A stretch of 64,000 nucleotides of DNA, taken from NCBI GenBank assembly GCA_000002435.2, contig CM018793.1; one strand, 5' to 3'. Under the pieces are notes generated by a model. That model was not told the origin of the DNA and did not search any database. It saw nothing but the letters and a program-made list of their open reading frames with translations. The translations under genes were made by a program, and so were the position numbers. The stretch is from Giardia intestinalis (lineage: Eukaryota). Positions 17,460 through 64,000 of the stretch are shown one piece after another; the stretch's first letter is position 1, and each line of letters opens with the position of its first letter.

Positions 17460-18714
17460 TTAGATGTCGGCCGCCATGAGTAAAGATACACCAGCAAGGA
17501 TCCATTTTGCGGGCGGCTCCCTCGTCTTGATCTGGAACGTCCATATGTAGGTGGGGCCGCGCCTCTTTGTCTTGTATACAGGGCAGTCGTAGACGTCCTT
17601 GAGGTCCGCCTTGTCTGCGGTCACTGCCTTTAAGTAGATTGGCGGAAGCTCTGGGAAGAGGTCCTTAAGGATGGAGTCCCTGATACAACCGCCCTTCTTG
17701 TCCCAGCGAGCGCCCTCCATGTAGAGGCCGTAGATATACGCACCCTCTCTTGGCGGAGCGGTGATTTCCGAGAGCTCCTTTTTCGTCACATCGGTGATGA
17801 GAGCCATCTTGTCGAGAGGCCACTGGTTCATCCTGGCAGTTGACTGGAGGACGGCGCGCAGGAAAGATTGCGGGTTGAAAAGCGCTGGAAGCCAGACAGC
17901 CTTTGGAAGATTGAGATCAGATGACCACGAAACCAGCTGGTCGCAGCGTTGTATCATGTCCTTCAACCACGGGCCAAGAGACTTCATACTCGGATATGCA
18001 ACGGCTTCCCATTTAGCAGGCACGACATCCAGGTACATGGACTGCATGAGGGCCTCCATTTGCTCGGAGATGGTCAAGTCGCCCTTGAGGCCCAAAGCAA
18101 GTTCCTTGAGAGACGACTTTATTGTGGAGAGCAGCTCATTCATGCGCCCACACTCCTGTAGACAGACACTGACGTAGGGTGTCCGCTCCTCCACTCGATC
18201 GGTAATCTCCAGCATGTCAAAGTTCTCGGGGAGCATATCCAGGATGTCTTCCAACTGTGCCTTGCAGCGGTCCTCGCGAGAGAGTTCGCCACTAGTGCTT
18301 GTGGCCGAGGTGCGCGGCTGCAACTGCATAAGCATCATGAAAAGGGTGTTTGACTGAGTAGTAAGGAACATGATCTCCGCGTTGGGGTGGAGACCATACA
18401 TCTTCGGCGATTCCTCAGGAAGCGCCTCAGCAATGTATGCCTTGTAGCCGTCGTAGCTCATTGGGGACGGCACAGGGAAGTCTGGGGCGAAGAACTTCCC
18501 GTCTTCAAAGAGAGCATCCGACATCAAGGAGTCCATAAACGAGCGCATGAGCCGGCGATCCAGATCATCGCCGACGTGTCCCCCGTAGAAGATGTCGCAA
18601 AACATGTATTTGAGGTCGTCCCAGGGGATTTTGGTGTTATTTTCTAGGTAGTTGAACAAGACATCCTTGCATATGGTCAGGTCGCCATTGTTGAAGTTGT
18701 AGGGGACGTTCCAA
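17460..18714 (-). CDS. dynein heavy chain C-terminal exon (last ~417 aa of a split DHC gene); first base completes a codon from an exon not present in cis
   Basis: Translation upstream of track ORF continues in frame: (x)WNVPYNFNNGDLTICKDVLFNYLENNTKIPWDDLKYMFCDIFYGGHVGDDLDRRL... = DHC C-terminal domain signature (YEFNESDLRI...IPW/F.ALRYL.GE.NYGGRVTDDWDRR); tail KTKRRGPTYIWTFQIKTREPPAKWILAGVSLLM matches DHC C-terminus; reading frame is closed right after the CAG acceptor. Confidence 0.85.
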
Positions 18715-44518: not shown

Positions 44519-46684
44519 ATGTTCGAAAAAATTCTCTTCACAAACTGCATATTGCAATTGGCCTGGATAATACAAACAGTAGCTGGGGCATGCACACCGG
44601 GAGAAACTGGTCCAACTAAGTGTAAAACCTGTGACGCTATCATAGGCACAGACAGCTATTGCAGCGAGTGTGACCAGGCGGGCGAAGGACCCATCAATGG
44701 AGTATGTACAAGCGAGCTAAGCGGCAATACTTGCGCTAATAAGATATGCACCCAGTGCGTAAAGAATTACTTCTTATATAAAGGAGGATGCTATAAATTT
44801 GCCGAATCACCGGGAAACATCATATGTGAAGACGCGATAGATGCAGCTGGCGGAACGGACGGAGTGTGTACCACGTGCAAGGCTGCTAACGGCTTCTTCA
44901 AGCATCCCGCCCCTGCAGAAACAAAACAGTCCTGCATTGCTTGTAATGAAACGGCCGGAGTCGTGGACAGTGACACCACGTACAAGGGTACATCCAACTG
45001 CCTGAAGTGTGACCCGCCCGCTGCTGCAATTGGAGCTAGAGCAGATAAAATGGCAGTGTGCACTCTTTGCGATCAGACTAAGTATCTCAAGGAAAGCGCA
45101 TGTGTCGAGAAAGCAGGGTGCGGCGCCAACATGTTTGGTAAGCCAAGTGTACAGGACGGGAATAAATGCATTGCGTGCGGGGATTCAAATGCTGGTATAG
45201 AGGGTTGCGCTGAGTGCACTGCGCCTGATGAACCAACTATTAAACCCACCTGTACAAAATGCACCGGTAACAACTACCTGAAAACCACAAGCGAAGGCAC
45301 GTCGTGCGTACAAAAGGAACAATGTAATGGGGCCTACTTTCCTAATGATAGTGTAGACGGTAAGAAACAGTGCGTTTCGTGTGGCGATGCAACTAATAAA
45401 GGCATAACCGACTGCACTGCATGCAATCTACTCAGCAGTCCGCTAGAAACAGTTCTTATTAAATGCTCTGCCTGCAGAAGTGGGAAGAAGCCTAATGAAG
45501 ATGGATCTGCGTGCGTCGATGCCCCAGGGCCCTCTCCAGAAGAATGCTCGATCGAAGGATGTCAGATATGTTCGGATGACAAAAAGACGTGTGATAAGTG
45601 CCAATCAAACAACTATCTCACTCCAACAAAACTCTGCATATCTGATTGCAAGAAGCTCGGAAACTATTATTTAGCTACCGAGCAAACAACTGGGAGCTGC
45701 AGGGAGTGCGCTATGGTTAATTGCAAAGAGTGTACTGAGAACGGTAAGTGTGGAATATGCAACGATGGCTTTTACCTCCTGAATGAGGAATGTAAGCCAT
45801 GTAATGATAGTTGCAAGACGTGCGAGGGTGGAGTGGAATCTGATAAGTGCACTAGCTGTAAGTCTGGAAGTGCTCTTATTTATGCAGGCAACGGAAATAC
45901 AGGCACATGTAGTCTTGGTTGCATACCCAAATCAAGTGCAGATCCTGGGTCTTGCAAGACATGTGATTTAGCTATTGATGGGACAAAGTATTGCTCAGTG
46001 TGTAATGTGGATAAAGAATACCCTCAAAACGGAGCTTGTGCTGGCATCAAGGCGCGTGCATCCTCATGCCAAGATGGAAATGTTAATAATGGTGTATGTA
46101 GTAAGTGCGAGACAGGGTTCTTCCTTATGAATGGGGGATGTTATGAAATAACCAAGTATCCCGGGAAAACAGTTTGCAGTAAGACAGCGGCTGATGGTAC
46201 ATGTGAGACACCCGCGACCGGCTTTAGTCTAAGTAGCAATACACTCAAAGCTTGCTTTGAAGGTTGTGCTAAGTGTGCTACTGGTGACGATTGTTCTGAA
46301 TGCATCAGCGGCTATGTATCAGGTAGTACCCCTAATAGTTGCGAAAAGTGTAGTACTGGTTGTGCTACATGCTACCCTACTGCCACGACTTGCACATCTT
46401 GTCTTGCTGGATACTATCAATCTGGACCTAAGTGCATTGCCTGTGATAAAGATGATTCTACTATCAAAGGTATTAGTAATTGCTTGAACTGCGCCCCTCC
46501 ATCGTCTGGTAGTGGCTCTGTCCTCTGTTATCTCATGAAAGGTGCCGACAACAACGGCGGGAGCACGAACAAGAGCGGCCTCAGCACAGGCGCCATAGCG
46601 GGGATCTCTGTCGCTGTCATCGTTGTTGTGGGGGGCCTCGTCGGCTTCCTCTGCTGGTGGTTCGTGTGCCGGGGCAAGGCGTGA
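44519..46684 (+). CDS. vsp: variant-specific surface protein (VSP)
   Basis: Signal peptide MFEKILFTNCILQLAWIIQTVAGA; ~40 CXXC motifs; GGCY motifs (YKGGCYKF, MNGGCYEI); C-terminal TM + invariant tail GAIAGISVAVIVVVGGLVGFLCWWFVCRGKA*; AGTAAAC poly(A) signal 8 nt after stop. Confidence 0.92.
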   Translation: MFEKILFTNCILQLAWIIQTVAGACTPGETGPTKCKTCDAIIGTDSYCSECDQAGEGPINGVCTSELSGNTCANKICTQCVKNYFLYKGGCYKFAESPGNIICEDAIDAAGGTDGVCTTCKAANGFFKHPAPAETKQSCIACNETAGVVDSDTTYKGTSNCLKCDPPAAAIGARADKMAVCTLCDQTKYLKESACVEKAGCGANMFGKPSVQDGNKCIACGDSNAGIEGCAECTAPDEPTIKPTCTKCTGNNYLKTTSEGTSCVQKEQCNGAYFPNDSVDGKKQCVSCGDATNKGITDCTACNLLSSPLETVLIKCSACRSGKKPNEDGSACVDAPGPSPEECSIEGCQICSDDKKTCDKCQSNNYLTPTKLCISDCKKLGNYYLATEQTTGSCRECAMVNCKECTENGKCGICNDGFYLLNEECKPCNDSCKTCEGGVESDKCTSCKSGSALIYAGNGNTGTCSLGCIPKSSADPGSCKTCDLAIDGTKYCSVCNVDKEYPQNGACAGIKARASSCQDGNVNNGVCSKCETGFFLMNGGCYEITKYPGKTVCSKTAADGTCETPATGFSLSSNTLKACFEGCAKCATGDDCSECISGYVSGSTPNSCEKCSTGCATCYPTATTCTSCLAGYYQSGPKCIACDKDDSTIKGISNCLNCAPPSSGSGSVLCYLMKGADNNGGSTNKSGLSTGAIAGISVAVIVVVGGLVGFLCWWFVCRGKA

Positions 46685-46691
46685 CTTAGGT

Positions 46692-46698
46692 AGTAAAC
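46692..46698 (+). promoter_or_regulatory. Giardia polyadenylation signal AGTAAAC (AGTRAAY) downstream of VSP stop
   Basis: tgacttaggtAGTAAACgcatc directly after TGA at 46682-46684. Confidence 0.7.
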
Positions 46699-46913
46699 GC
46701 ATCTCCTATTACATCTGCTCAGCAGCCTTGCGCAGAAGTCCAGGAATGAGTGGCCACGAAGCAGGGTCTCCTGACGTCTCGAGTAAACATACATAGTGCT
46801 CGCTCTGCGTGGAGCATCGAAAGCCCGGCGCGGTGTAGCCACGGCTGCTGGTTGGAGCGGAACGCGTTGGAGCTTTTTGAAAATGGCCCTACCCCGTGCC
46901 GGCCACGCGGCCT

Positions 46914-47534
46914 CTAGACCAGCGAGGCGAGGAGCTTCGTGATCCCCGGGCGCGCGCGGTAGCCATCAAATAGCTCGCGCAGCGGCGGAAACTGGTCCAC
47001 GAGCTCCGGACACTCTGCGTCCGCATAATACAGGACCTCCAGGACCGCGTAGTCCGAGTCGAGCGGCTCGAACGCCAGGCTCCGAAGGTTCAGCACGTCC
47101 CGGGTCAGGACGGTCAGCCCCGGAAGGATCCTGTTCTGTCGGTAGGCCGCGATGCACTCCGAGCGCGTCATCTCTGCCCCAGCGGCAAGGGCCTCTGCCA
47201 CGGCTTTGGGCTCCTTCCAGGCGGCGGCAAGGAGATCCTCACAGAAGAGCACCAGGGCCCGCGCAGCAGCCTGCACCTGCAATGACGTGCTGTACCGCCC
47301 CAGGCTCGCCCCCAGGTACTCCAGGATGACCATGCCCCCGGCCACCCGCGCCGCGCTGTCTTCCCACACGGGGAGCGTGCACGATGGTGCACCCACCTTC
47401 GCCGCGGCCACCTGCTCGGCGCTCGCCAAGGGCGCCCACTCGTACCGTATCTCCAGGTCTGCGAGCAGGAGCCGGCACTTCAACGCGGTGCCCCGGGCGT
47501 CGTAGTACGTGAGTCTCGGCGGAACTACGTCCAT
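46914..47534 (-). CDS. glutathione S-transferase-fold protein (cytosolic GST sigma/mu-like architecture), extremely GC3-rich
   Basis: MDVVPPRLTYYDARGTALKCRLLLADLEIRYEW...PVWEDSAARVAGGMVILEYLG parallels GST N-domain (KLTYFNxRGRAE.IR...I.YE...P.LEVDG..L.QS.AI.RYL); C-terminal alpha-helical domain; GC3 >80%; ATG at 47534 preceded by agaagtaaaATG. Confidence 0.5.
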   Translation of the reverse strand: MDVVPPRLTYYDARGTALKCRLLLADLEIRYEWAPLASAEQVAAAKVGAPSCTLPVWEDSAARVAGGMVILEYLGASLGRYSTSLQVQAAARALVLFCEDLLAAAWKEPKAVAEALAAGAEMTRSECIAAYRQNRILPGLTVLTRDVLNLRSLAFEPLDSDYAVLEVLYYADAECPELVDQFPPLRELFDGYRARPGITKLLASLV

Positions 47535-50500
47535 TTTACTTCTCTGGTGGGCTCGTATCAACTGTGCCAAGGTGCGAGGCAACCCCTGGCACGCGGGCCA
47601 CCTCTCCCGGGGGGAGATCCTTGGGTTTCAGTTTACTATCTGAGCGCCAGCTTCATGTAGCTGCTATACGTTGCTAACTGCTAGTACCTGCATAGATAGT
47701 GGTGGGGTTGGGGTGGACACTAGGCTGGCGCGATTTATGGAGGTCGTTTGCCTCCTGGGTCGTTTGAACCTCGAGGGTCCGGAATCTTCCAGTTGGACCC
47801 TCTAAATCATATCACGAACCATCAGACGGAGAGACCGACCCACAGCTGGTCAAAAGGGTCGGCAGTGATCGCAGCCACTGTGTCACTCGAGGACCTGTTG
47901 GGGCCCGGGACTCTGCAGAAGCTCCTCACTAGTTCGGTCTTGAAGTCCACGCTCTTGTGTGCCAAGATCCACGTCTTGTTATGCGTGCCGTGCTTTCCAG
48001 TATAATCGTGCTTATACTTGTCGCCCTCTCTAATGCAGTTTCTAATGCTACCATGACGGGACTTCTCGCTATTTTGTGCTTCATGTTTGTCAACACGGCC
48101 TAGGTGCCCTGCTGTCTGTTCTGCAGCCGCTTCATCTCCTGCTAGAAGGAAGCGAGAGCCCTTGGGTATCCGGTAAGACTTCTGAGTAAACGAGGTAATG
48201 CTTCGATGAGTGTACGTTAGTCGCATCGGCACAGAGCGCGTACTAACCAGACGAAGTCACATGTCTGCTAACTTCTATATAATATTCTAAAGCTATCCGG
48301 TCTCTGGGTGGCACCGCCAGGTGTGTAGTGGGGCCCGTGGCCATTAAGACCCAGAAGGGCCTCTTCTCCTACTTGGCTCCGGAGTCAGTCCCAGTAGAGC
48401 ATTGTTATGAGGCTGGTGTGCAGAGAGACACCGGATAGTTTGTACCGGTACACACCCCTTGTCCCCAGACGGCACTCACCAGGAGTAGGCATTCGTAGAA
48501 CCGCAGCATCGTGGGCTTGTGCACCGCTCGCTGCCCATGCACGTGTAGCTGCAGGCACACAAGCCAGTCGAGAGGCGCTCACTTGCCGGAGCTCCCTAAT
48601 CACTGTTCAGAACACCGAACCGACGCCCCTGCCAGCGCGCCGCTCTTTGTAAGATACCCCAGAGGAACTCCAGTCGTCGCTCAACAGCGTGCATACCCGA
48701 GGCCTCTGTCTAGGGAACACTGCGCCCGCCTCTGCATGTCTTGAAGTGCAGAAAAGAAGGTCTACCGATAGAGCCCTACACCATGTCCAGACATCCTATG
48801 TTTTCAGAATCTTCGCGCAAGGATAAGAGGTAGGATGGGCAGAACTTGGCTGGCCTCGCGTCATGCAGATAGCGATGCTATGCGTACCACGTGATTGCAT
48901 GTCACCGCACAAAGACAAGAGCCTGTATCAGCAGCCGACGGCATTTTACCAGTAGACCGAGGGACATTCCCGCACTGTACTCATTCTCCTGTGTAACTTT
49001 CAAGCATGTTCGGTCGTGCTGGACGCTGCCTTTAGTCATATCTTGCTGAATAGCCAACGCAGTTGGCAGTGACCCCAAATATAGTGCGCCTTGCCTAATT
49101 CAGACTCCGGGATAGGCGTGTGGAAGACAAGCAGACGCATAGTATGGAGCACAGAGAGCCGTAGAGACAGTTCTAAGCGCATCATAGAGAAGCAGAGTGG
49201 GCTGTGGCCTCATGTGGTTAGAGGTATATGATCGTATAGTCTTCTGTTCAGGACACATATCTTGGGAGCCACTGCGTTGAGTCCTCTAGACCATCACTTG
49301 GAGGGCGAACCGTCGTGCAATGCAGGGCTGCATGCCAAAAGACACATGTCTGTCAGGAGAAGGTCGAAGGACGGATCCACAGGCATTGCATGACTTGCTG
49401 GCATTCTTCTGTACAGAGCGTAATGCCTCGTGACAGGGAAGTCGTAGTTTTGTCACCAACCCCAATAGGGCTAAGGCATGATCAACGCAGAACTATGCAT
49501 TCCTGCTGTGGTGTCCACAGAAGTGCTTGTCGAAGAGGATGTTCGCGCTCTCTGAGGGTACACACGAGGAGGGGCTGTGTAATGCGAAGAGCCGGGCACA
49601 GACCTTAAAGGGCTCAGGCTCGTGGTCATAAAAAGTCGCTCCTGCCCGTCTCCGCGGGTACTGCAGTCCTCGATGGTGGATCATCGCATCTTCTCCTTAA
49701 CCGGCACATTGGCAGCCTGGTCTCTGGCGCAGGCACGCAGAGCATCGGGCCAGAAGCGCCGACTCGTTACCTCCTTTGCTCAGCCAAGTCCCGTGTTGGC
49801 CACAGAACACGCGTGTCTGCCCCCAGTGCGTAGCCGCTGAATCCTCAACAGAGGGACGTGTTCAGAAGTCTACGCTAACGCAGCCCACTGCAAGCAAAGT
49901 TCATCTGTCTCTCAGAGAAGAGGCGGCTGGGCCGTGTGTTGCGCATCAAGAGGCCTTTGTGAAGGGCGCCCGCACGTCTCGTCACACATGTGCGTCCGAG
50001 TGACAAGTAGCAGCCGGCGATACGGCCGCCCTCGGCTTCGCAGACACAGCGGGTGTGCTTACTGGTGTTCAAAGCAGTATGCCGTTGATCGTGGCATGCC
50101 TTTTCTCCAGGAGGGCTGGACGCCACTCGAATTGTGACTGTGTGCCATAGACGGGTGCTCTCCTTGTTACTCTGTAACACTCGTGCGCATCGGGACCGGC
50201 GATTCGCATCTGTGATCCAGACAGGAGCAGCGTCTTGTACTTCCGAGTAAGATGCAGCCGGCCCGCGAGCCTACGTGCCGATCTATAGTCTATAACAAGC
50301 AAGCGGCAACCACTTGGCGTGCTACTCACGTGGACATTGCAGACTCTGCATCTGAATCGAGAGGCTTGACAGCGTACCGATTCCACGCTTGGCCGTCATA
50401 GGAGCCGCTTCCTTCTGCTCAGTAGTAAGCAGTCCGGCTTTACCGGTAGGAATGATCGATATAGCTGAGTGGCCCGAATAGACCCTAGTGACACCACGGC

Positions 50501-51526
50501 TTTCTGTTTATATTAAACGCCTTCGCTGTACTGGGGTCTCAGTGAGAAGACGAGCACAGATCCAGGCATGCAAGCCTTTAGAGATGCGTACTCCACGCAA
50601 TTCCGGTGTGCTCGCCTGACGAGTCCTACTGCTCTAGCCGGCATACCGTTAGATCCTTCTGTACAGATTGAGCGAGCAGATATTAGCATACGGGTCACGT
50701 TAAGTACCTATGTTCAAGGCAGCTGCTGTTGAACGGGCACACCCAGAGCCACTGTCACGTAAGATGCCAGCAAGATTCGCGGCCGCAGATCACACTGTAA
50801 TCTGGCGACTGATTTGGTCATGTCGCTTCTTTATCGGCTGGAAACTCGACTGGAAGCGACAGAGAGCACGTCGGGAGAACTCGATGGGAGAGGACTGGCA
50901 GGGCTTCCTGCGCCACGGGGGGAGCCACCGCAGGAGGACGCGCAGGCACGCACGCCAGGCCACAGTAGACACGCGGACGCCCCTGTAGACTGGGCCGGCA
51001 GCAGGCGTCCGCAGAATCCGCGCCAGAGCCAGCTGCTCAAAAAACTGGGCAGCCTCTGGTCGTGTGCAGGCCTTGCAGAGCGCTGCGGCTCCCGACACTC
51101 GGCGACCCCTCTCAGAGCGGAAGACCCCGCGGGCCGCAGGCAGCAGCTCGTCGTCGGCGATGTCCCGAACGAGGGGGACGGCCCCAGCCTGCCTGCCTCC
51201 GCAGAGCTCTGGGTGTCTGCAGACAAACCGGGGCTGCGCAGGGCGCGGCTCTCCCTGGCGGCCGAGGGCGGGGATCCCCGGCAATACCAAAAAACTCCGA
51301 TCAATACATCAACCCCGGCGCCGCCGTGTGCAAAGCAGTCTGTTCTGTGTGGCGACCTAAGCCAACTCGTACTGCGGCGATGGCCCGGATGAGGGCGCCC
51401 TGCTCGCCCGACGGACCGGGGCAGGCAGGCAACAAACACCCGCTAAAACTTTTGCGCAAGGCCTGTACATATTTAATTTCACATTATTCGTTGGTCTGTT
51501 TTTAGTTTTATCGCCGCTTCTATTGG

Positions 51527-52117
51527 ATGGGCTCTGGGGCAATGACGGCGGAGACGCGCGCCTCCGTTCTGCTCGAGCTCGCGAAGCAGGTCGTCGCTGC
51601 CCGGCGGCTGGGGGAGACGGCCGAGAGCCTCGCGCGGCGGCCGCTGCTCCTCCACCGGCACGTGCTCCGGACGGCCATCGACTGGAAGAAGATCGCCCGC
51701 GCCCTGTCCGAGGACCGGAGCAGGATCTACCACTGGTACCGCGAGACGCACTCGCGGAGCATCCTCAACGTGAAGATGACCGGCGAGGACCGCAGGGCCA
51801 TCAAGGCGATGATCATCGCCGGGGTCAGGGACCGGAGCATCCTGGGCCCGGACTTCTACCGCAGGGTCCACGAGCGCTTCGGGGCGAAGTATCCGCGCCA
51901 GGAGCTGCGGATGACGTACAACAACGCGCTCCGCACCCAGGACGTCCGCGCCGCCCTGGAGGAGCATGGGGTTCTTCCTGGGCCCGGCACCCTCTCGCTC
52001 CAGACGGGCCAGGATCTTCTCGGGCCGCCCACTTCCTTCGCATGCGTGCCATGCTTCCCCCCTGCGGGCTACGGGGGCGTGCCTGGGTGCGCTGATACAT
52101 ACCCCAGTAAGGGCTGA
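51527..52117 (+). CDS. candidate GC-rich gene encoding 196-aa protein with two Myb/SANT-like helix-turn-helix units
   Basis: Only ORF in the GC-rich desert with protein-like composition (IDWKKIARALSEDRSRIYHWYRETH; RRAIKAMIIAGVRDRSILGPDFYRRVHERFG); ATG preceded by a sharply AT-rich initiator patch (tacatatttaatttcacattattcgttggtctgtttttagttttatcgccgcttctattggATG) embedded in ~68% GC DNA. Confidence 0.3.
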   Translation: MGSGAMTAETRASVLLELAKQVVAARRLGETAESLARRPLLLHRHVLRTAIDWKKIARALSEDRSRIYHWYRETHSRSILNVKMTGEDRRAIKAMIIAGVRDRSILGPDFYRRVHERFGAKYPRQELRMTYNNALRTQDVRAALEEHGVLPGPGTLSLQTGQDLLGPPTSFACVPCFPPAGYGGVPGCADTYPSKG

Positions 52118-53407
52118 AGACTGGAGAGCCCGGCTTGCCTGGTGGTCGTCGAGGGGCATCGACGAGTGGTCGGTAGAAACGGCTAATAGTTGAAGTCCTG
52201 GTCAGTGGCGAGACAGTCATTCCTAGAGCGTGTAGCATGCTCGGCCACTTCATAACGCAGGGCCCACCAGACGCAAGCTGTGACGGCCTGGATGTCGCGC
52301 AATCCGTGGCCTGTGCATCGTTGCAGGGGCCATACACAGCAGGTGGAGGCAGGGTTTCCTGTGTGCTCAGACGACTCGACCATCGCAGTTCTGGGTCGAC
52401 GATCCACTAGATATTCCTGTCTAACAACGGGCGGCCGAACGCCCTCTGGGCTGTGAGCTAACACTAACGTGCAGTTGGTCGGCCACCAGATCCATCTTGG
52501 TTAGCCCTCTGCCTACATGCGCCAACACGCCGAGGAGCTACAGGGCAGTCGTTTGCTGTCTTGACAGGTATACTATTGCCTCTATATCTGCACCCTGGAT
52601 GCGGCCACCATAGCACAGTTGCATCTCTGATCATCCTGTGCACACCTTCTGGCACGAGCAGGTGCGCCGGAAGGGATGCACTGCCCACCGCCGAGAAATG
52701 GATGAACTCCCTTACCCAGGAGCCGGCTGACCACTAGCCGTGCCCAGCAAACCCCAATAAGCAGGCCTGCTGAGCCAACCCATCCAAGAAGCTGTGTATC
52801 CGGAAGAGCTTCGCGTCGAATGGCTCCTTGATTAAAGAAGCTGGCATCCAGCGCGACATGACGACTGCTCGCCTGGTGCTGTGCTACCTGCTGGGCGGAA
52901 ACACAGACGCCCTAAGCTCCGTGTGAGCTTGTGCTCAAAGCGTCCTTCACCGGCACGGGATTCCAGGAACTAGGCGTAGATAGGAAGAGCATTCCCCGCT
53001 AGTGCCACGAAGTACCGGTACGCTACCTGGATACACCGATGGCAGCGAAGAGTACGAGAAGGTCCCAGGGCCTCATCGAGCGGGTCTGCTCCTAGCAGGC
53101 CCAAGTGGACGCTCTCTCCAGCAGTGTACAAGAAGCCTGGGAGGGAGTGCTCAGGCTGGAGCTGAGGCGTTGCTGGTACAGGCTGTCCTTACTGAGTGCA
53201 TCCCTCAGCGTCCAATAAGTGGAAAAGTGACCGGAGCTAGGTGTGCCTGCTTCTTCTCTGCCGCCTGCATGTTGTTGCATCTCTAGCTCTTCCTCATTTG
53301 TCGAGCGACTGCTCCTTCTGGCCTCTTGCTGGTCCTCGTTCGTCGTGTAGTCTCTTTTGGAGCTGCTCCCTGGAGGTCGGGCTGACCAGCAACATGGAGG
53401 AGCCTCA

Positions 53408-56400
53408 TTCTTAGCTTCACACTCCACAACTGGCCCAGCGACATGTTGACCATTTTACAAGCAGTTCTGGGTCGCCCAGTCTGGGGCCGGCTGCTGTGCA
53501 TTCTCTGCTTGACTGCCAGGGTCCGCGTCTGGCCCAGACACTAGATGGACAGGAGGCACGGACAAACGCCATTTGCTTGTTGCTTTCATGATCCACGAAG
53601 CTGCTGTCTTTATGTGAGTCTCGACCCAGGTCGGTCTCCGTTGTAGGTGCAACAGTCTTGCGCATGCAATCTGGAGGATCTACGTTAGCGGGTCGAGCCG
53701 AGCAATCCTTGTTAGCGCCTGCCATCCGACGTCTCTGTTGTTGAACTGGCCTGTAGAAGTCCGCTATAGGCCCTCAGGCTCTTTGTCTGTGAGGTTCTGT
53801 GAGGTCCTCTATACCGGTCAGGCCTGTCCGCGTACTCTGTTGATGGGCGAGCTGGTGCATGCAGTCACAGCCCCTGCGCCACCTTCCATTCGGCACTCGG
53901 CGTGTCCACCTGCTTCCGGCCTGCCCTCGCAGAGCACGCTAAGCGCCCACCTATAGCGCATGTCGGTGGAGACTCCTCGGGAGCAATTTGCGGGGGTCTC
54001 GATGAGGTGGCCGACGCCCAGTGAACGACCCCAAGCCACCCTTTAGTGTCTGCGCTGTCGCTCCACGAGAGTGCGTAGTGGGATGCGGCCCGGAGTCCTC
54101 ATGTGCGGGGGCTGACAAGGACTGACAGCCACAGTCAACGGCAGAAAGTTCGGCACCCCGTGTTCCCACGACGTCTCCGATCGCAGTACTGGCGGGGCCT
54201 GACGGCGCTTCTCTTCTTAATTCGGAACGAGTTAAGGAGTTTCCGCCGTAGGATGGCCGAACTGGCGGCCGGCAGGGCTGTGCGATGTGTTAGAGATTGT
54301 TAGAGATTCATACTGTATATTGTGCAGTGGCTAACGTGTATGGGTGTCCCACCGAAGACCCGGCGAAGGATGGCACCGGAGGTGAGACAGGATGACTCCT
54401 GGTGGAGGGGACCACGGTGCTGGCTTGCCTGCAGATGCCGTGGCCAAAATCTCAGCCCGTCCAGGAGTTTAACGGAGGTCATGCGGCCGGACACCGAGGC
54501 CTACCGGAGAGCCGCATCGCCCCTGCACGAGCCAGCAAGCACTGCCTTCGACCCGACCACAGTTGAGAGCGCCCATGTCCGTGGATGCCGTCGGTCAGGT
54601 CCCTGAAGACCACCCTGCTCACAGCCCCAGGGATCCCTCTGCAGACTCTGATTTCTATATCCCTGGGGTAGATGTTTGCGGATAGCGGCACAGGGCTCAG
54701 CAAAACCGCCAGAAGATCCACAGCACACTGTCATTAACTATAAACGTCTTGCGGTATTCATTCCACAATTGAGCCGGTCGTACTGACACAGGAACTGGAG
54801 TCAGGCACTTCTAGGGTGCAACTACAGGACTGTGGAGGAGCTTGCCTTCACACAAAGAAGATCACGTGGACCAGATGTGCCCGGACTGAGAAGCGCCCGC
54901 TTTACCGAGTAATGGTCGCTAATCTATGCACACAGATCATGTTTGGCGGCAAGCTCCCCTGTAGCTCATGCATCACTGTGAATCACTGCCTAGAGGCTTG
55001 TGTTGGAGATGCCGCAAGACACTAATGGCTGACAGGTGTGACTAGCCGTTCTTCCAGTGGTCGTCTCTGGATGCACCGAGTACCTAAGGCGATAGATCAG
55101 CGCTGCAGGCCTTGACTGTCACGGGCCTTGTGCATAGCTGATCAAATGCCCAACACACTCTGCCCGAGGGTGCCCAAACCCCACGGTGCTGTAGTCGGGC
55201 TGCTAAGGTGCGAGAGGTGGGGCACAGAGGCGCCTATCAGAGCCAAGGATCTATGTGTCACCTGCCTCTGGGTGGAGCAACTACGCCATAGTAGGGGGTG
55301 TTTGTTGCCATACAGAAGTGGGTACGATGAGATACGAAGGCACAGTCCTGCCGCAGAATCCGACGGGTGCTCGGAAACGGGTAACCCGGTAACCTCGTAG
55401 AATAGCAACGTCGAAGCTATAGAGTAAGCAGATGTAATAGGAGATGCGTTTACTACCTAAGTCACGCCTTGCCCCGGCACACGAACCACCAGCAGAGGAA
55501 GCCGACGAGGCCCCCCACAACAACGATGACAGCGACAGAGATCCCCGCTATGGCGCCTGTGCTGAGGCCGCTCTTGTTCGTGCTCCCGCCGTTGTTGTCA
55601 CCAGTACTATCACCCATCTCGAGGCACATGAACGCACTGGTGGATGACACCGTGCACTGTCTGCACCCAGCGAGCCCCTCAGAGCACTTCTTGCACGGTC
55701 CACTATCGCTACTCTCCTTATAATATCCACGAGCACATACTTTGCATGTGGCAGCCGCGGTTTCGCAGGTGTAGCAGCTTTCATGACATTTCGTGCAAGC
55801 TTTGACGTTACTGAATGCTATGTATCCATCCATACATTCTGTACATTCATTTGCAGTATTACACGTCTTACAGCCTTCAGGGCATATTACAAGGTTGTTT
55901 TCATTATTTAAGTTAAACCCTGGCATAGGTCTATCACAAGTCCCACCAGTTGTCGCCACTGTTGCACATACACTGTGCGCAGGGTACTTCTCATCTTCGT
56001 AGCACCCTCCGTTCATCCGAAGGAGCCCATTAGCACACGAATTGCAGACACCGGTTCCTTGAGAGGTGCATGTCGCAGCCCGCCCACTTGGTTTCGGTGC
56101 ACAGACACCGTTCTGGGGATACTCATTGTCCTGGCTACATGCAGAGCAGTACCTTGTGCCTTTAACAATTAGATCACATGCTTTACAGTTCCCAGTGGCT
56201 TTATCTGTATTGACAACACATTCAGGAGCGCATTTACCCTTCTGCCCATTTGCATAGTCAAGGATGGTTCCAGGTTTGCACTCAGTACAATCATTAGCAG
56301 TGTTTCCCTTACAATTCTTGCAACTACCGTCACACTTCTGGCATATCCCAGCATCGTCAGCATAGAATCCATCTTCGCAGAAACCGCATTTGCCGTTCGG

Positions 56401-57945
56401 ATCACACACAACGCAATTCTTGACCTCGCACTTCTTACAGATCCCTTTGCCGCCCTCTGTGCTGCTGTAGTAGCCTAGAATATATTCGCAATATTTTATG
56501 CACATCCCTGTCGGAGTGAGATAGTTCTTGTCCTTGCACTCCTCACATGTCTTCTTGTCTGCAGAACATTTCTGGCAGTTCTCGACGGGGCAGTCAGAGG
56601 GCGGAGGTTCTGGGGCATCGACACATGTAGATCCCTCGTCATTGGGTGTCTTTCCGCCGTTACACGTAGTGCACTTGATAGCAGACTCTCCAGCTAATCC
56701 GCGAGCTTCCTTGAGAGTACATGTCTTACAGTCAATTATGCCACCGGCGTCGGTGTCTCCACACGGGACGCATTTTTTGATACCCTTAGCTGTGACAGGG
56801 AAGTGGTCTGTCTTACACTGCGTCTTTTCAACGCAACTAGAAGGCGTTACAGCTAATAAATAGTATTCGCCCTCACACGTAGTGCATGTGGCAGAGCCGG
56901 GGCCTTCAGGAGGAGTACACACTTTGCAGTTCGGAACACCTCTGAAACCATCAATCGTATCTGCCTCATTGCAGGCAATGCAAGATTGGTGGGTGTTATC
57001 GCTAGCACCCATATTTTTGAAGAACCCGTTAGCGTCATTGCATGTTTCACAGAGTCCTGCACTACTACTCGCACTTTTGCAAACGGTTTGTCCAGGAGGT
57101 GCTGCTTGTACATAGCATCCACCTTTGTGGAGGAAGTATCCAGCCTTAGTACACTTTCCACATGTGGTTGAATGCTCATCGAGAGCTCCATCAACTTTTT
57201 CACATCCGGCAGTTGTGATAAGCCCATCACTTTTATCCTTACATTCCCCATTAATGGGCACCTCTCCAGGTTTAGCACAGTCAGTGCAAACTCTATCTCC
57301 ACCTATGCTAATGCATTTACCCTGTTTACACTGTCCTGTTTGCGGGTCACTGCTAGCCTCTGTGCATGTTTTTGCTGCCCGTGCTACTTGCAGAATCAAA
57401 ATTCCAAAGAGGATTTTCTCGAACATTGCCAGCAGTCCGTAGAGCATCCAGTAGAGAGAGCCTGCACACCTAATATCAGTGTGCTGTGTCGCTAGACATC
57501 GCTTATGGGGGCGGTCCAGAGGTCTTACATGAGCTGCCCCAACTTTCTGATCAGTTTGGAGACGATGGCTGGTTCTAGACAGCAAACAGGGACTCCTCTT
57601 TATTAGCATATCTAAAACCTGGCACCTTCCCCGGCCGCTCACCCTGGGATTTAGCTCACTTGCCCACTTGCGTCGTCCACCAATGGCGCCTCTCCTTGGT
57701 CTTCCTTCGTGGTGGGTGAAGCTCCGGTCGCTGTCTTTTTTAGATGCTCCCGTCTGTCAGGGGCTGCCATCGGGCTCTCCACTGGCCGCCCCTCGGTGTC
57801 CGTCTGGCTGTGGCCCGGGCAGCGCTCTACAGTCGCGGTCACTTGGGTCTCAGCGGGCCAGCTGGTGGGGAGGCTGGGGCATGGGGCGGTGAGGCTGGAG
57901 GGTGGCGGTGTCGTCTGTGCCCCTGGTCCGGTGGGCCATTGGGGT
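53408..57945. repeat. left arm of large inverted repeat (>=4.5 kb; outer end truncated by mirror of window edge) containing VSP gene plus flanks
   Basis: Mirror-image identical ORF translations about axis 58704 (53417..53725(-) = 63683..63991(+); 55462..57642(-) = 59766..61946(+)); arms begin to diverge near 57900-57945 (few SNPs: G/R, V/A, P/R codon changes). Confidence 0.9.
55462..57426 (-). CDS. vsp: variant-specific surface protein (VSP), inverted duplicate of 59982..61946
   Basis: Identical 726-aa extended ORF to the arm-2 copy; signal MFEKILFGILILQVARA (alt. upstream ATG at 57447), CXXC repeats, GGCY, C-terminal ...GFLCWWFVCRGKA*; AGTAAAC signal on minus strand at 55448-55454. Confidence 0.85.
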   Translation of the reverse strand: MFEKILFGILILQVARAAKTCTEASSDPQTGQCKQGKCISIGGDRVCTDCAKPGEVPINGECKDKSDGLITTAGCEKVDGALDEHSTTCGKCTKAGYFLHKGGCYVQAAPPGQTVCKSASSSAGLCETCNDANGFFKNMGASDNTHQSCIACNEADTIDGFRGVPNCKVCTPPEGPGSATCTTCEGEYYLLAVTPSSCVEKTQCKTDHFPVTAKGIKKCVPCGDTDAGGIIDCKTCTLKEARGLAGESAIKCTTCNGGKTPNDEGSTCVDAPEPPPSDCPVENCQKCSADKKTCEECKDKNYLTPTGMCIKYCEYILGYYSSTEGGKGICKKCEVKNCVVCDPNGKCGFCEDGFYADDAGICQKCDGSCKNCKGNTANDCTECKPGTILDYANGQKGKCAPECVVNTDKATGNCKACDLIVKGTRYCSACSQDNEYPQNGVCAPKPSGRAATCTSQGTGVCNSCANGLLRMNGGCYEDEKYPAHSVCATVATTGGTCDRPMPGFNLNNENNLVICPEGCKTCNTANECTECMDGYIAFSNVKACTKCHESCYTCETAAATCKVCARGYYKESSDSGPCKKCSEGLAGCRQCTVSSTSAFMCLEMGDSTGDNNGGSTNKSGLSTGAIAGISVAVIVVVGGLVGFLCWWFVCRGKA

Positions 57946-59462
57946 GGTAGGTGATCCCCTCTCTGTTTGCCAAGGTGGTTGTGTCTGATCTCCAACCGTC
58001 GTTGTACTCCCGAGACAAAGGCACCGACGATCGTGTCGTGTCCCCCTGACTGAGCGCCTCCTCTCAGCCCCTGCATGTCTCGGGCAGTACTGCTTCTCTG
58101 TTTGACTAGTACGTGAGGGTCAAAGCAGGCCATCCCAGGCCCTCCTGATGCTCTGTGCGGGTCTGCTGAGCCCCCTGGCATGCCCTGTCTGGTGCCTCGA
58201 CGGTAGTTCACCTCGGGCCAGCAGGGGCATGGATGACCCTGTGGATGGGATGGGTTCTCTCAGGCCTCTAGTGTGATGACCCAGAAGACTGACACGGTGG
58301 GGCACCAGTGACTGCACTGTCCCCGTGGTCAGCTGTGCTGCCCCTGGTGGGTCCTCGTTGTAGAGCGCTGTGTGTTGTTCATAGGCAGAGGTGAGCCTCC
58401 TTGGTCTCAAGATGCTCTACCATGCAGAGAGGAGCACGCTGAGGGTCACCCATACCTCACACCTGCTGTGTCCTCGGGGAGTTCCCGGTGTGATCCACTA
58501 GGACCTTGACCCCTCTCGTGGCTCTGATGACTCGCCTCAGGGAGAGTCGGGGCACCCTATACTGAGGGGTGTGCACCCTCCTGCATGAGCTGGGACCCAC
58601 TGCACTGCCCCCAAGGAGGTCTGCTATGAGAGGCAGTGAATGATTGACAGCCCCTCAGAGTGCGGTGGAGGGTGCTCGTGGTCGTCTCTTGTGATCGGGC
58701 ATCACTCTGATGGTCGGCTCCTGTGCCTGCGTGGTGCTCAGAGGTCACCTGTCTGCCTCGTAGCCTGCTGGACAGCCGGGCCTCTTGTGGCGTCCGAAGG
58801 TCTCCTCACTCCTCTGGTCGCTGTCCCCTCGGGTCATAGGTGGAGGCCAGCGAGTCTTCGGAGTCTGGTGCCTGCCTGGGTGTCATGGAGAGGCTGGCAG
58901 CTATCAAGGCTCTGCCACTGCTCGCCTGCCTGGAGTGTGCCTCCCTTGGGCCTGCTCTGCTGTGCTGCGTGAGTCCTCTGGCTCCTATCAGACCTCTGAT
59001 TGTGAGAGTGACTCCACCTGGCCTTCTGATGCCCCTGTGGATGAGCATAGCAATGTGTCTGGTTGAGGATCTCTGGTGCCCGTGGCTGTCACTGCCTCTC
59101 GGGTGCTTGGGTAGTTGCCTGGGGCTCTCGTATGGGGGCACAGTCTGTTCGTGTGTGGATGGTCCTCCTGGACTCATGTCCATCTGTGCACACTGTCACT
59201 CAGCCTCGAGAGCAGACCAGTGCAGTCACCAGGGTTGCTGTCAGAGGGAGTCGTCTGCCACTACCATCGTTCGAGCAGACTCTACAGCTCAGGCTGGCTG
59301 CTGTGCACCCTCATGGCAGGGCTGCTTGACTCCCCTTGGTCATCCTCTCTGTCCCGGTGCACACGGCTCCTGAGGGTTGTCTGGGTGGAGGCACTCACAG
59401 ACCACGAGCACACAGAGGGATGAGTCACAGATGGACAGCCCCCAGTCACCACAACTGCAATC

Positions 59463-62400
59463 ACCCCAGTCCACCGAGAGGTCAGGGGCACAGACGACAC
59501 CGCCACCCTCCAGCCTCACCGCCCCATGCCCCAGCCTCCCCACCAGCTGGCCCGCTGAGACCCAAGTGACCGCGACTGTAGAGCGCTGCCCGGGCCACAG
59601 CCAGACGGACACCGAGGGGCGGCCAGCGGAGAGCCCGATGGCAGCCCCTGACAGACGGGAGCATCTAAAAAAGACAGCGACCCGAGCTTCACCCACCACG
59701 AAGGAAGACCAAGGAGAGGCGCCATTGGTGGACGACGCAAGTGGGCAAGTGAGCTAAATCCCAGGGTGAGCGGCCGGGGAAGGTGCCAGGTTTTAGATAT
59801 GCTAATAAAGAGGAGTCCCTGTTTGCTGTCTAGAACCAGCCATCGTCTCCAAACTGATCAGAAAGTTGGGGCAGCTCATGTAAGACCTCTGGACCGCCCC
59901 CATAAGCGATGTCTAGCGACACAGCACACTGATATTAGGTGTGCAGGCTCTCTCTACTGGATGCTCTACGGACTGCTGGCAATGTTCGAGAAAATCCTCT
60001 TTGGAATTTTGATTCTGCAAGTAGCACGGGCAGCAAAAACATGCACAGAGGCTAGCAGTGACCCGCAAACAGGACAGTGTAAACAGGGTAAATGCATTAG
60101 CATAGGTGGAGATAGAGTTTGCACTGACTGTGCTAAACCTGGAGAGGTGCCCATTAATGGGGAATGTAAGGATAAAAGTGATGGGCTTATCACAACTGCC
60201 GGATGTGAAAAAGTTGATGGAGCTCTCGATGAGCATTCAACCACATGTGGAAAGTGTACTAAGGCTGGATACTTCCTCCACAAAGGTGGATGCTATGTAC
60301 AAGCAGCACCTCCTGGACAAACCGTTTGCAAAAGTGCGAGTAGTAGTGCAGGACTCTGTGAAACATGCAATGACGCTAACGGGTTCTTCAAAAATATGGG
60401 TGCTAGCGATAACACCCACCAATCTTGCATTGCCTGCAATGAGGCAGATACGATTGATGGTTTCAGAGGTGTTCCGAACTGCAAAGTGTGTACTCCTCCT
60501 GAAGGCCCCGGCTCTGCCACATGCACTACGTGTGAGGGCGAATACTATTTATTAGCTGTAACGCCTTCTAGTTGCGTTGAAAAGACGCAGTGTAAGACAG
60601 ACCACTTCCCTGTCACAGCTAAGGGTATCAAAAAATGCGTCCCGTGTGGAGACACCGACGCCGGTGGCATAATTGACTGTAAGACATGTACTCTCAAGGA
60701 AGCTCGCGGATTAGCTGGAGAGTCTGCTATCAAGTGCACTACGTGTAACGGCGGAAAGACACCCAATGACGAGGGATCTACATGTGTCGATGCCCCAGAA
60801 CCTCCGCCCTCTGACTGCCCCGTCGAGAACTGCCAGAAATGTTCTGCAGACAAGAAGACATGTGAGGAGTGCAAGGACAAGAACTATCTCACTCCGACAG
60901 GGATGTGCATAAAATATTGCGAATATATTCTAGGCTACTACAGCAGCACAGAGGGCGGCAAAGGGATCTGTAAGAAGTGCGAGGTCAAGAATTGCGTTGT
61001 GTGTGATCCGAACGGCAAATGCGGTTTCTGCGAAGATGGATTCTATGCTGACGATGCTGGGATATGCCAGAAGTGTGACGGTAGTTGCAAGAATTGTAAG
61101 GGAAACACTGCTAATGATTGTACTGAGTGCAAACCTGGAACCATCCTTGACTATGCAAATGGGCAGAAGGGTAAATGCGCTCCTGAATGTGTTGTCAATA
61201 CAGATAAAGCCACTGGGAACTGTAAAGCATGTGATCTAATTGTTAAAGGCACAAGGTACTGCTCTGCATGTAGCCAGGACAATGAGTATCCCCAGAACGG
61301 TGTCTGTGCACCGAAACCAAGTGGGCGGGCTGCGACATGCACCTCTCAAGGAACCGGTGTCTGCAATTCGTGTGCTAATGGGCTCCTTCGGATGAACGGA
61401 GGGTGCTACGAAGATGAGAAGTACCCTGCGCACAGTGTATGTGCAACAGTGGCGACAACTGGTGGGACTTGTGATAGACCTATGCCAGGGTTTAACTTAA
61501 ATAATGAAAACAACCTTGTAATATGCCCTGAAGGCTGTAAGACGTGTAATACTGCAAATGAATGTACAGAATGTATGGATGGATACATAGCATTCAGTAA
61601 CGTCAAAGCTTGCACGAAATGTCATGAAAGCTGCTACACCTGCGAAACCGCGGCTGCCACATGCAAAGTATGTGCTCGTGGATATTATAAGGAGAGTAGC
61701 GATAGTGGACCGTGCAAGAAGTGCTCTGAGGGGCTCGCTGGGTGCAGACAGTGCACGGTGTCATCCACCAGTGCGTTCATGTGCCTCGAGATGGGTGATA
61801 GTACTGGTGACAACAACGGCGGGAGCACGAACAAGAGCGGCCTCAGCACAGGCGCCATAGCGGGGATCTCTGTCGCTGTCATCGTTGTTGTGGGGGGCCT
61901 CGTCGGCTTCCTCTGCTGGTGGTTCGTGTGCCGGGGCAAGGCGTGACTTAGGTAGTAAACGCATCTCCTATTACATCTGCTTACTCTATAGCTTCGACGT
62001 TGCTATTCTACGAGGTTACCGGGTTACCCGTTTCCGAGCACCCGTCGGATTCTGCGGCAGGACTGTGCCTTCGTATCTCATCGTACCCACTTCTGTATGG
62101 CAACAAACACCCCCTACTATGGCGTAGTTGCTCCACCCAGAGGCAGGTGACACATAGATCCTTGGCTCTGATAGGCGCCTCTGTGCCCCACCTCTCGCAC
62201 CTTAGCAGCCCGACTACAGCACCGTGGGGTTTGGGCACCCTCGGGCAGAGTGTGTTGGGCATTTGATCAGCTATGCACAAGGCCCGTGACAGTCAAGGCC
62301 TGCAGCGCTGATCTATCGCCTTAGGTACTCGGTGCATCCAGAGACGACCACTGGAAGAACGGCTAGTCACACCTGTCAGCCATTAGTGTCTTGCGGCATC

Positions 62401-64000
62401 TCCAACACAAGCCTCTAGGCAGTGATTCACAGTGATGCATGAGCTACAGGGGAGCTTGCCGCCAAACATGATCTGTGTGCATAGATTAGCGACCATTACT
62501 CGGTAAAGCGGGCGCTTCTCAGTCCGGGCACATCTGGTCCACGTGATCTTCTTTGTGTGAAGGCAAGCTCCTCCACAGTCCTGTAGTTGCACCCTAGAAG
62601 TGCCTGACTCCAGTTCCTGTGTCAGTACGACCGGCTCAATTGTGGAATGAATACCGCAAGACGTTTATAGTTAATGACAGTGTGCTGTGGATCTTCTGGC
62701 GGTTTTGCTGAGCCCTGTGCCGCTATCCGCAAACATCTACCCCAGGGATATAGAAATCAGAGTCTGCAGAGGGATCCCTGGGGCTGTGAGCAGGGTGGTC
62801 TTCAGGGACCTGACCGACGGCATCCACGGACATGGGCGCTCTCAACTGTGGTCGGGTCGAAGGCAGTGCTTGCTGGCTCGTGCAGGGGCGATGCGGCTCT
62901 CCGGTAGGCCTCGGTGTCCGGCCGCATGACCTCCGTTAAACTCCTGGACGGGCTGAGATTTTGGCCACGGCATCTGCAGGCAAGCCAGCACCGTGGTCCC
63001 CTCCACCAGGAGTCATCCTGTCTCACCTCCGGTGCCATCCTTCGCCGGGTCTTCGGTGGGACACCCATACACGTTAGCCACTGCACAATATACAGTATGA
63101 ATCTCTAACAATCTCTAACACATCGCACAGCCCTGCCGGCCGCCAGTTCGGCCATCCTACGGCGGAAACTCCTTAACTCGTTCCGAATTAAGAAGAGAAG
63201 CGCCGTCAGGCCCCGCCAGTACTGCGATCGGAGACGTCGTGGGAACACGGGGTGCCGAACTTTCTGCCGTTGACTGTGGCTGTCAGTCCTTGTCAGCCCC
63301 CGCACATGAGGACTCCGGGCCGCATCCCACTACGCACTCTCGTGGAGCGACAGCGCAGACACTAAAGGGTGGCTTGGGGTCGTTCACTGGGCGTCGGCCA
63401 CCTCATCGAGACCCCCGCAAATTGCTCCCGAGGAGTCTCCACCGACATGCGCTATAGGTGGGCGCTTAGCGTGCTCTGCGAGGGCAGGCCGGAAGCAGGT
63501 GGACACGCCGAGTGCCGAATGGAAGGTGGCGCAGGGGCTGTGACTGCATGCACCAGCTCGCCCATCAACAGAGTACGCGGACAGGCCTGACCGGTATAGA
63601 GGACCTCACAGAACCTCACAGACAAAGAGCCTGAGGGCCTATAGCGGACTTCTACAGGCCAGTTCAACAACAGAGACGTCGGATGGCAGGCGCTAACAAG
63701 GATTGCTCGGCTCGACCCGCTAACGTAGATCCTCCAGATTGCATGCGCAAGACTGTTGCACCTACAACGGAGACCGACCTGGGTCGAGACTCACATAAAG
63801 ACAGCAGCTTCGTGGATCATGAAAGCAACAAGCAAATGGCGTTTGTCCGTGCCTCCTGTCCATCTAGTGTCTGGGCCAGACGCGGACCCTGGCAGTCAAG
63901 CAGAGAATGCACAGCAGCCGGCCCCAGACTGGGCGACCCAGAACTGCTTGTAAAATGGTCAACATGTCGCTGGGCCAGTTGTGGAGTGTGAAGCTAAGAA
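59463..64000. repeat. right arm of large inverted repeat (runs to window end)
   Basis: Reverse complement of 53408..57945; see left arm. Confidence 0.9.
59982..61946 (+). CDS. vsp: variant-specific surface protein (VSP), head-to-head with its inverted duplicate
   Basis: Start chosen by homology to first VSP (MFEKILF...; alternative ATG at 59961 MLYGLLAMFEKILF; track start 59766 is a non-ATG extension); CXXC/GGCY motifs; CRGKA tail; AGTAAAC at 61954-61960. Confidence 0.85.
   Translation: MFEKILFGILILQVARAAKTCTEASSDPQTGQCKQGKCISIGGDRVCTDCAKPGEVPINGECKDKSDGLITTAGCEKVDGALDEHSTTCGKCTKAGYFLHKGGCYVQAAPPGQTVCKSASSSAGLCETCNDANGFFKNMGASDNTHQSCIACNEADTIDGFRGVPNCKVCTPPEGPGSATCTTCEGEYYLLAVTPSSCVEKTQCKTDHFPVTAKGIKKCVPCGDTDAGGIIDCKTCTLKEARGLAGESAIKCTTCNGGKTPNDEGSTCVDAPEPPPSDCPVENCQKCSADKKTCEECKDKNYLTPTGMCIKYCEYILGYYSSTEGGKGICKKCEVKNCVVCDPNGKCGFCEDGFYADDAGICQKCDGSCKNCKGNTANDCTECKPGTILDYANGQKGKCAPECVVNTDKATGNCKACDLIVKGTRYCSACSQDNEYPQNGVCAPKPSGRAATCTSQGTGVCNSCANGLLRMNGGCYEDEKYPAHSVCATVATTGGTCDRPMPGFNLNNENNLVICPEGCKTCNTANECTECMDGYIAFSNVKACTKCHESCYTCETAAATCKVCARGYYKESSDSGPCKKCSEGLAGCRQCTVSSTSAFMCLEMGDSTGDNNGGSTNKSGLSTGAIAGISVAVIVVVGGLVGFLCWWFVCRGKA

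Follow-up and report, generated by a model that had tools for sequence, protein, structure and literature searches.

The stretch of DNA considered here (the window: 64,000 nucleotides (nt) of Giardia intestinalis, contig CM018793.1 of assembly GCA_000002435.2) carries on its minus strand, at 46914-47534, a gene for a protein resembling glutathione S-transferases (GSTs), and it is this gene, its family and its base composition that we discuss. The open reading frame (ORF) is intact from an ATG at 47534 to a stop at 46914-46916 and encodes 206 amino acids (aa) that are 100% identical to KAE8304971.1/XP_037902191.1, named 'Glutathione S-transferase-like protein' in G. intestinalis WB, where a contig of 4.0 Mb carries it. 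The chromosomal order given in the PMC8866875 supplement is Dus GL50803_3565, variant-specific surface protein (VSP) 13390, GST-like GL50803_d60225, d60223, d113864 and VSP 137722, continued by VSP 137723, 113864, 60223, GST-like GL50803_60225 and VSP 37093. Since the window agrees with this order, with Dus (a Pfam match) followed by a VSP gene and then the GST-like gene, the ORF is assigned to GL50803_d60225 on chromosome 5. Because of the protein identity, and because the ratio of nonsynonymous to synonymous substitution (dN/dS) among orthologs is ~0.09 across Giardia lineages, with synonymous sites saturated, comparison identifies the ORF as a true gene and not a chance ORF of GC-rich DNA. 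The same ratio indicates strong purifying selection on the family within Giardia. In the current reference genome the gene already bears a GST-like annotation; what is new here is a divergent member of a known superfamily. Its main features are the following.

46914-47534, minus strand: GST-like gene GL50803_d60225 (ORF and translation; 100% identity to KAE8304971.1; gene order matching the PMC8866875 supplement)
47304-47516, minus strand: thioredoxin-like N-terminal domain, residues 7-77, beta-alpha-beta-alpha-beta-beta-alpha (Pfam GST_N_2 and predicted secondary structure)
46920-47282, minus strand: all-helical C-terminal GST domain, residues 85-205 (predicted helices; weak GST_C_3)
47505-47507, minus strand: codon (TAC) of Tyr10, equivalent of the catalytic GSTP1 Tyr7/GSTA1 Tyr9 (HMMER alignments to 2j9h_A and 1usb_A)
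47370-47372, minus strand: codon of Pro55, equivalent of GSTP1 cis-Pro53 at the start of strand beta3 (alignment; invariant throughout the alignments)
47334-47339, minus strand: codons of Gly66-Gly67, at the site of the gamma-glutamyl-binding Gln64-Ser65 (Pi)/Gln67-Thr68 (Alpha) (alignments)

The first-pass annotation, made from the DNA letters, had recognized a GST fold in the motifs LTYYDARG, LEIRYEW, PVWED and ILEYLG, all of which are present in the 206-aa translation, and profile searches and modeling bear this out. Pfam GST_N_2 scores 27.3 bits (cutoff 25) over residues 17-75, and GST_N (19.8 versus 20.9) and GST_C_3 (14.5 versus 21.6) fall just under their cutoffs; among 15 members of the clade described below, 12 match GST_N_2 and 11 match GST_C_3. 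An AlphaFold2 (AF2) model from a 32-sequence alignment (predicted local distance difference test (pLDDT) score 96.1, predicted template modeling (pTM) score 0.90), which supersedes a poor earlier model from 10 Giardia sequences (pLDDT 55), has a thioredoxin-like domain with strands at residues 7-11, 32-36, 56-58 and 63-65 and helices at 18-26, 39-48 and 67-77, followed by helices at 85-106, 108-117, 124-153, 160-174, 183-193 and 196-205, a secondary-structure order canonical for GSTs. Foldseek matched 618 GST chains, with GSTA1 and GSTP1 at a template modeling score of ~0.75, and phmmer aligned the full length of the protein to GSTP1 (E 4e-5) and GSTA1, which the Giardia family profile raised to ~1e-6. 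A scan of the protein against NCBIfam gave no match, which tells little because that library names bacterial and archaeal proteins. By both superfamily architecture and profile score, the protein has the canonical two-domain GST fold. It had also been suggested to be EF1Bgamma-like. The N-terminal domain of EF1Bgamma, including that of Giardia gEF1Bgamma, has the GST fold in common with it; we rejected this identity, which would call for an EF1G domain at the C-terminal side of the GST-like one, since the protein has no EF1G domain.

As judged from these comparisons, the family is best explained as a small, very divergent group of tyrosine-type cytosolic GST-fold proteins within the Alpha/Pi/Sigma supergroup. 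The Giardia protein is only ~20% identical to human GSTP1-1, human GSTA1-1 and Onchocerca volvulus GST2, and it is without the C-terminal helix of the Alpha class. Residue equivalences were taken from the HMMER alignments to 2j9h_A and 1usb_A and from clade alignments, and the functional roles of the aligned residues are presumed to be those of Pi and Alpha structures. Tyr10 shows conservation of at least 90% in the clade alignments, and Leu54-Pro55 aligns with Pi Leu52-cisPro53, the proline position being read from sequence and its cis geometry assumed. Also kept are Lys46 (Pi Lys44, Alpha Arg45), Arg14 and Arg21 (both structural) and Asp161 in the capping motif of helix alpha6. Replaced, by contrast, are Pi Arg13/Alpha Arg15 (now Thr16; Thr, Glu or Val in Fornicata and amoebozoan relatives), Pi Trp38 (Glu40), Gln51/54 (Thr53) and the Gln-Ser/Thr pair itself (Gly66-Gly67). 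The last site reads G-S or G-A in other Giardia sequences, H-S in Kipferlia and H-G in Chilomastix; the canonical Gln is thus lost in the whole Fornicata clade, whereas the distant Sigma-like matches P0044, P0048 and P0051 retain Q-S. The aromatic 'key' of the dimer lock-and-key contact (Pi Tyr49, Alpha Phe52) is Ser51 here, Cys in G. muris and Phe or Leu in most other Fornicata. Sigma GSTs, hematopoietic prostaglandin D synthase and the S-crystallins of cephalopods form a further comparison: the Sigma class keeps both Gln-Ser and the Arg14 equivalent, the Giardia protein does not, and nothing here points to prostaglandin chemistry. Overall, the thiol-activating half of the site is conserved and the gamma-glutamyl pocket remodeled, and the earlier doubt that this is a fully canonical GST was well placed, given the Gly-Gly pair and the lost Arg13 and Trp38 equivalents.

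An exhaustive HMMER search with the Giardia profile (E<=1e-3) returned only 28 matches among 1.84 billion representative proteins. Word-indexed homolog searches gave just 4 and 14 proteins, and the Fornicata relatives needed the exhaustive search. The nearest matches were from G. muris (1.5e-52), Dysnectes brevis, Kipferlia bialata, Ceratiomyxa and Chilomastix cuspidata, with two further close matches from a sequencing run and a metagenome; the weaker matches that carry names were amoebozoan, chytrid and metazoan Sigma-type proteins, and none of the named matches was recognized as bacterial. G. muris TNJ27416.1, Kipferlia GIQ80603.1 and the Dysnectes and Chilomastix proteins form one clade with the G. 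intestinalis protein (E 1e-52 to 4e-11 with the Giardia profile), having in common the Tyr, an ARG motif, the LP pair, a conserved Trp106 and the loss of the canonical Gln. The members outside Giardia differ in their aromatic residue or Leu in place of Ser51/Cys, and in an S-G-x-R-[FYW] tail that is missing in Giardia. A neighbor-joining (NJ) bootstrap tree grouped all Giardia sequences, the run and metagenome sequences and three other Fornicata at 61%, with G. intestinalis at 99% and assemblages A+E at 100%. An assignment of the run and metagenome relatives to Hexamitinae was rejected; their contigs use TAA, TAG and TGA as stops. Because the nearest relatives are those of G. muris, Dysnectes, Kipferlia and Chilomastix, the gene phylogeny shows vertical descent within Fornicata, from a Fornicata ancestor and not from a recent transfer. 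In the Kipferlia bialata protein GIQ80603.1 (P0040), the GST-like domain makes up the C-terminal 200 aa of 580 aa; ahead of it come an N-terminus of ubiquitin-like appearance and then a long low-complexity linker rich in Pro, Ser, Thr and Val. The arrangement could reflect a gene-model fusion or a genuine one.

The features needed to describe the surroundings of the G. intestinalis gene are listed here.

44519-46684, plus strand: neighboring VSP gene GL50803_13390 (721-aa Cys-rich ORF with a CRGKA C-terminus; gene order)
46859-46913, minus strand: 3' flank of the GST-like gene, 55 nt, duplicated with the coding sequence (CDS) and containing GGGCCATTTTCAAAAAGC (blastn of the P15 syntenic locus)
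53408-57946, no strand: left arm of a palindrome, measurable part, 100% complementary to 59462-64000, which meets the window end
59462-64000, no strand: right arm of the palindrome, cut short where the window ends, 100% complementary to the left arm

The VSP neighbor noticed in the first-pass annotation is indeed present; it is convergent with the GST-like gene, from whose stop 229 nt separate it, and has AGTAAAC immediately 3' of its own stop. No AGTRAAY poly(A) signal was found within 400 nt downstream of the GST-like gene. G. intestinalis WB has three paralogs of the gene: d60225 itself, the palindrome mirror KAE8304978.1 (GL50803_60225), which lies on the same 4.0 Mb contig and has a single aa difference, and XP_001708273.1, which is encoded on another chromosome and shares 96% identity. 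Assemblages E and B have two or three copies each, and the assemblage B loci have the VSP association alone in common with this one. The palindrome arms are each at least 4.5 kb long and flank a spacer of 1515 nt at 57947-59461. Beyond that, the palindrome across the GST-like gene was read from the published gene order, where d60225, d60223, d113864 and VSP137722 are mirrored by VSP137723, 113864, 60223 and 60225 (PMC8866875 supplement); by annotation, the arms extend ~11 kb to both GST-like genes, with GL50803_60225 expected ~5.9 kb past the window end. By tblastn no second GST-like copy was found inside the window. When the syntenic locus of P15 was compared with the window by blastn, the sole match was 47519-46859, at 85%. 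The d60225 gene is thus a young and compact duplicate, of the CDS and ~55 nt, set among VSP genes in one arm of a large palindrome that is nearly perfect.

Several further elements lie in or near these arms. The palindrome carries an identical head-to-head VSP pair at 55462-57609 (minus strand) and 59799-61946 (plus strand), which are GL50803_137722 and 137723, and a complete 5S rRNA gene at 54145-54264 (minus strand; Rfam RF00001, 88.3 bits), whose mirror is expected near 63144-63263 (plus strand). A stretch of 173 nt at 46547-46719 is 100% complementary to 55427-55599; these are the 3' ends of VSP 13390 and VSP 137722, covering the coding end for the transmembrane segment and CRGKA, the stop and AGTAAAC, and the VSP bodies are far more divergent.

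The base composition of the GST-like gene stands out from its surroundings. GC content is 0.676 overall and 0.705, 0.473 and 0.850 at first, second and third codon positions (GC1, GC2 and GC3), in agreement with the earlier statement that GC3 exceeds 80%. This GC3 ranks second among 35 window ORFs of at least 150 aa and lies 3.7 standard deviations above the 21 long window ORFs (mean 0.52); neighboring long ORFs have 0.40-0.57. The orthologs range from 0.94 in P15 (assemblage E) through 0.85 in WB (A) and 0.60 in B to 0.37 in a Giardia lineage of low GC content. The copies of P15 and of this low-GC lineage share one syntenic housekeeping locus, where neighboring genes are 71-73% identical and have a GC3 of only 0.30-0.43, and in P15 the GC content drops from ~0.70 to ~0.43 within 100 nt of the 3' end of the gene. 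Since ortholog GC3 varies this widely while the neighbors at one locus stay low, these comparisons show the elevated GC3 to belong to a local GC-rich island that has sharp edges and is particular to the lineage of assemblages A and E. Of the two origins the first-pass annotation had offered, regional composition and high-expression codon bias, the former is thereby supported as a local effect. The island enriches G and C alike, accompanies low mRNA abundance and shifts the protein toward Gly, Ala, Arg and Pro, which make up 35% of residues as compared to 22-25% in assemblage B and the low-GC lineage; 54 amino-acid changes are GC-enriching and 11 go the opposite way. As to the loci compared, the P15 ortholog (L006 1-2083, ACVC01000177.1; GC3 0.944) lies on the margin of a GC-rich block (0.67-0.77) reaching at least 640 nt upstream (bins from position 800) without a called gene, and the low-GC lineage (L003, a Logan SRR17450158 contig of 37.6% GC) encodes a GST-like protein that is 66% identical and has neighbors syntenic with those of P15.

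High-expression codon bias would attribute the GC3 to translational selection, which favors optimal codons where expression is high, and it draws on the raised GC3s of putatively highly expressed Giardia genes (PMC1805757) and on the GC3 of 0.79 in the HSP90 gene of this window (430-1404). The four-fold sites of the two genes are unlike, however, with G.53, C.32, T.07 and A.08 in the GST-like gene and C.54, G.15 and T.21 in HSP90; GC1 and the Gly/Ala/Arg/Pro content are likewise raised, and orthologs under the same constraint make do with a GC3 of 0.37-0.60. Expression data, which the first-pass annotation had proposed to consult, show GL50803_60225 to be transcribed at a low level, with an RNA-seq log counts per million (logCPM) of 2.37 as compared to ~9-12 for peroxiredoxin, HSP70 and BiP. 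Translational selection is already contradicted by these observations, and we regard it as very improbable. Lateral acquisition, also raised from the sequence, would account for both the presence of the gene and its deviant composition. Its composition is sharply unlike that of its neighbors, it lies in a variable, VSP-rich region, and Fornicata GSH1 itself may have moved between eukaryotes (PMC6934886). Yet the phylogeny places the Fornicata relatives closest, clustering together, followed by amoebozoan and metazoan Sigma-like GSTs, with no bacterial protein among the named matches, and the ortholog occupies a conserved housekeeping locus in both assemblage E and the low-GC lineage. Because composition differs by lineage, the GC richness arose after speciation and was not imported. 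Lateral transfer is therefore largely refuted and retains hardly any credibility. For the A/E island itself, the most economical candidate, and the most likely cause, would be GC-biased gene conversion between the copies, both dispersed and palindromic.

The premise that Giardia lacks glutathione metabolism, from which the first-pass annotation found a GST unexpected, held in one part and failed in another. Cysteine is the main thiol, but Giardia species and Kipferlia are reported to have a GSH1 and a GSH2, both expressed in Giardia, and a glutaredoxin-like protein, all of them lost in Hexamitinae, and thioredoxin reductase has been proposed as the reductase of oxidized glutathione (PMC6934886). 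GL50803_16001, a glutamate-cysteine ligase, and GL50803_15429, a glutathione synthetase, are reported to be up-regulated in mid-encystation (PMC8700996), a low level of glutathione (GSH) has been detected in Giardia (PMC4450592), and GSH-dependent arsenic detoxification has been inferred for Giardiinae (PMC7762791). That 'Giardia has no GST gene' was stated in PMC4450592 and PMC5377010 and used to exclude GST as a target of NBDHEX, the sole 'GST-like' Giardia protein discussed there being gEF1Bgamma; a comparison of oxygen and thiol defense across Fornicata (PMC6934886) lists no GST. Our literature searches found no functional work on a Giardia GST. Because these papers deny or do not list a Giardia GST, the GST-fold family fills a gap in Fornicata thiol metabolism. 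It was found in Giardia and Kipferlia, for which GSH-synthesis genes are reported, and also in Dysnectes and Chilomastix; no homolog was found in Hexamitinae in the one exhaustive HMMER search, which left five weak matches without identification. The occurrence of the family thus appears to follow that of the glutathione-synthesis genes, and this co-distribution favors a glutathione-linked role.

We propose for the family the role of a thiol-dependent transferase or isomerase of low abundance. The thiol would be activated by Tyr10 while Lys46 and the beta3 backbone at Leu54-cisPro55 hold it in place, in a G-site with a remodeled gamma-glutamyl pocket. Glutathione supplied by GSH1 and GSH2 of Giardia itself is the most likely thiol, as the co-distribution suggests. 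Together with descent from a Fornicata ancestor and an A/E-specific GC island, for which biased conversion among the dispersed and palindromic copies would be the most likely source, this account of a divergent tyrosine-type GST-fold family is the one we consider probable, with appreciable room for error. Several observations weigh against it. Five of about seven Pi-class GSH side-chain contacts are not conserved in d60225, so that GSH may be bound weakly or not at all. The Fornicata clade has modest support (61%), which comes from a simple NJ tree, and the five weak matches qualify the absence from Hexamitinae. The protein is NA in all nine proteome columns and was never quantified in the proteomes consulted, and the RNA-seq counts are unreliable, since multi-mapping among near-identical copies may depress them. 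As for gene conversion, assemblage B is multi-copy too, yet its GC3 is only 0.60; VSP genes inside the same palindrome are not GC-rich; and the P15 GC-rich block runs upstream past the homology block.

The loss of contacts could also be read in other ways. The protein might be a non-catalytic GST-fold protein that makes no use of a thiol, either a 'ligandin' for heme, bile-derived or other hydrophobic ligands or a structural or regulatory protein like the S-crystallins. Purifying selection would fit this as well as it fits catalysis, but the clade-wide conservation of Tyr10, the retention of Lys46 and Leu54-Pro55, and a distribution that tracks the GSH-synthesis genes all make it unlikely. Free cysteine and gamma-glutamylcysteine are the dominant and precursor thiols of these anaerobes, and it is conceivable that the Fornicata proteins form a distinct GST class using one of them, a 'cysteine S-transferase'. 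The replacement of Gln by Gly or His, of Arg by Thr or Glu and of Trp by Glu, with the Tyr and the Cys-binding beta3 backbone kept, would suit such a class; we consider it a long shot. A different concern is that d60225 and its palindrome mirror are redundant duplicates becoming pseudogenes, the functional gene being the syntenic paralog XP_001708273.1. A protein relative-rate test with P15 as reference gave the palindrome copies 6 derived substitutions versus 0 in the paralog on the other chromosome (p = 0.03). Among these, S149N, Y159D and Y175C alter residues that all other sequences of the G. intestinalis group keep unchanged, and E110K is private; moreover, Gly67 stands in d60225 where assemblages E and B and the low-GC lineage keep Ser, no canonical poly(A) signal was found, and all RNA and protein columns give 0 or NA for d60225. 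The d60225 copy may be under relaxed constraint. Against decay, the frame is intact over 206 codons, the palindrome copies are only one residue apart, and GL50803_60225 is transcribed and altered in drug-resistant lines (RNA change -1.84 and -4.02 in two metronidazole-resistant lines). The zeros of the 'd' copy are probably a multi-mapping artifact, six changes are few, and neofunctionalization would look alike. We consider decay of the palindrome copies rather doubtful, if still a serious contender, and retain the thiol-dependent role of the family as the preferred reading. The gene has no entry in the portion of the supplement text of the encystation RNA-seq study (PMC8700996) that was consulted.

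Established knowledge is not overturned by these results, the gene having been annotated as GST-like before; their interest is moderate and lies in the assumption of the Giardia literature that a GST is absent. In addition, the locus presents a clean natural case of gene-scale GC enrichment, with a GC3 of 0.37 versus 0.94 at one syntenic position whose neighbors barely changed, which makes it useful for work on biased gene conversion in an organism whose sexual cycle is a matter of continuing debate.

Elsewhere in the window, the plus-strand HSP90 ORF at 430-1404 covers the C-terminal part only (Pfam HSP90 profile positions 196-507 of 518, E 7e-118) with C-ending codons, which we take to fit the known split, trans-spliced HSP90 gene of Giardia. 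A minus-strand ORF at 17460-18605, with a moderately raised GC3 of 0.70, covers a dynein heavy chain only at its C-terminal end (AAA_lid_11 and Dynein_C), the remaining upstream part presumably lying in an adjacent ORF. The ~8 kb from 47600 to 55400 are GC-rich (0.51-0.70) and almost without convincing ORFs, which is odd for the compact Giardia genome. The one exception within them, a plus-strand ORF at 51527-52117 (196 aa, GC3 0.89), has no Pfam match, overlaps several spurious ORFs and is unrelated to the GST-like gene; it is probably the annotated hypothetical gene d60223 or d113864.

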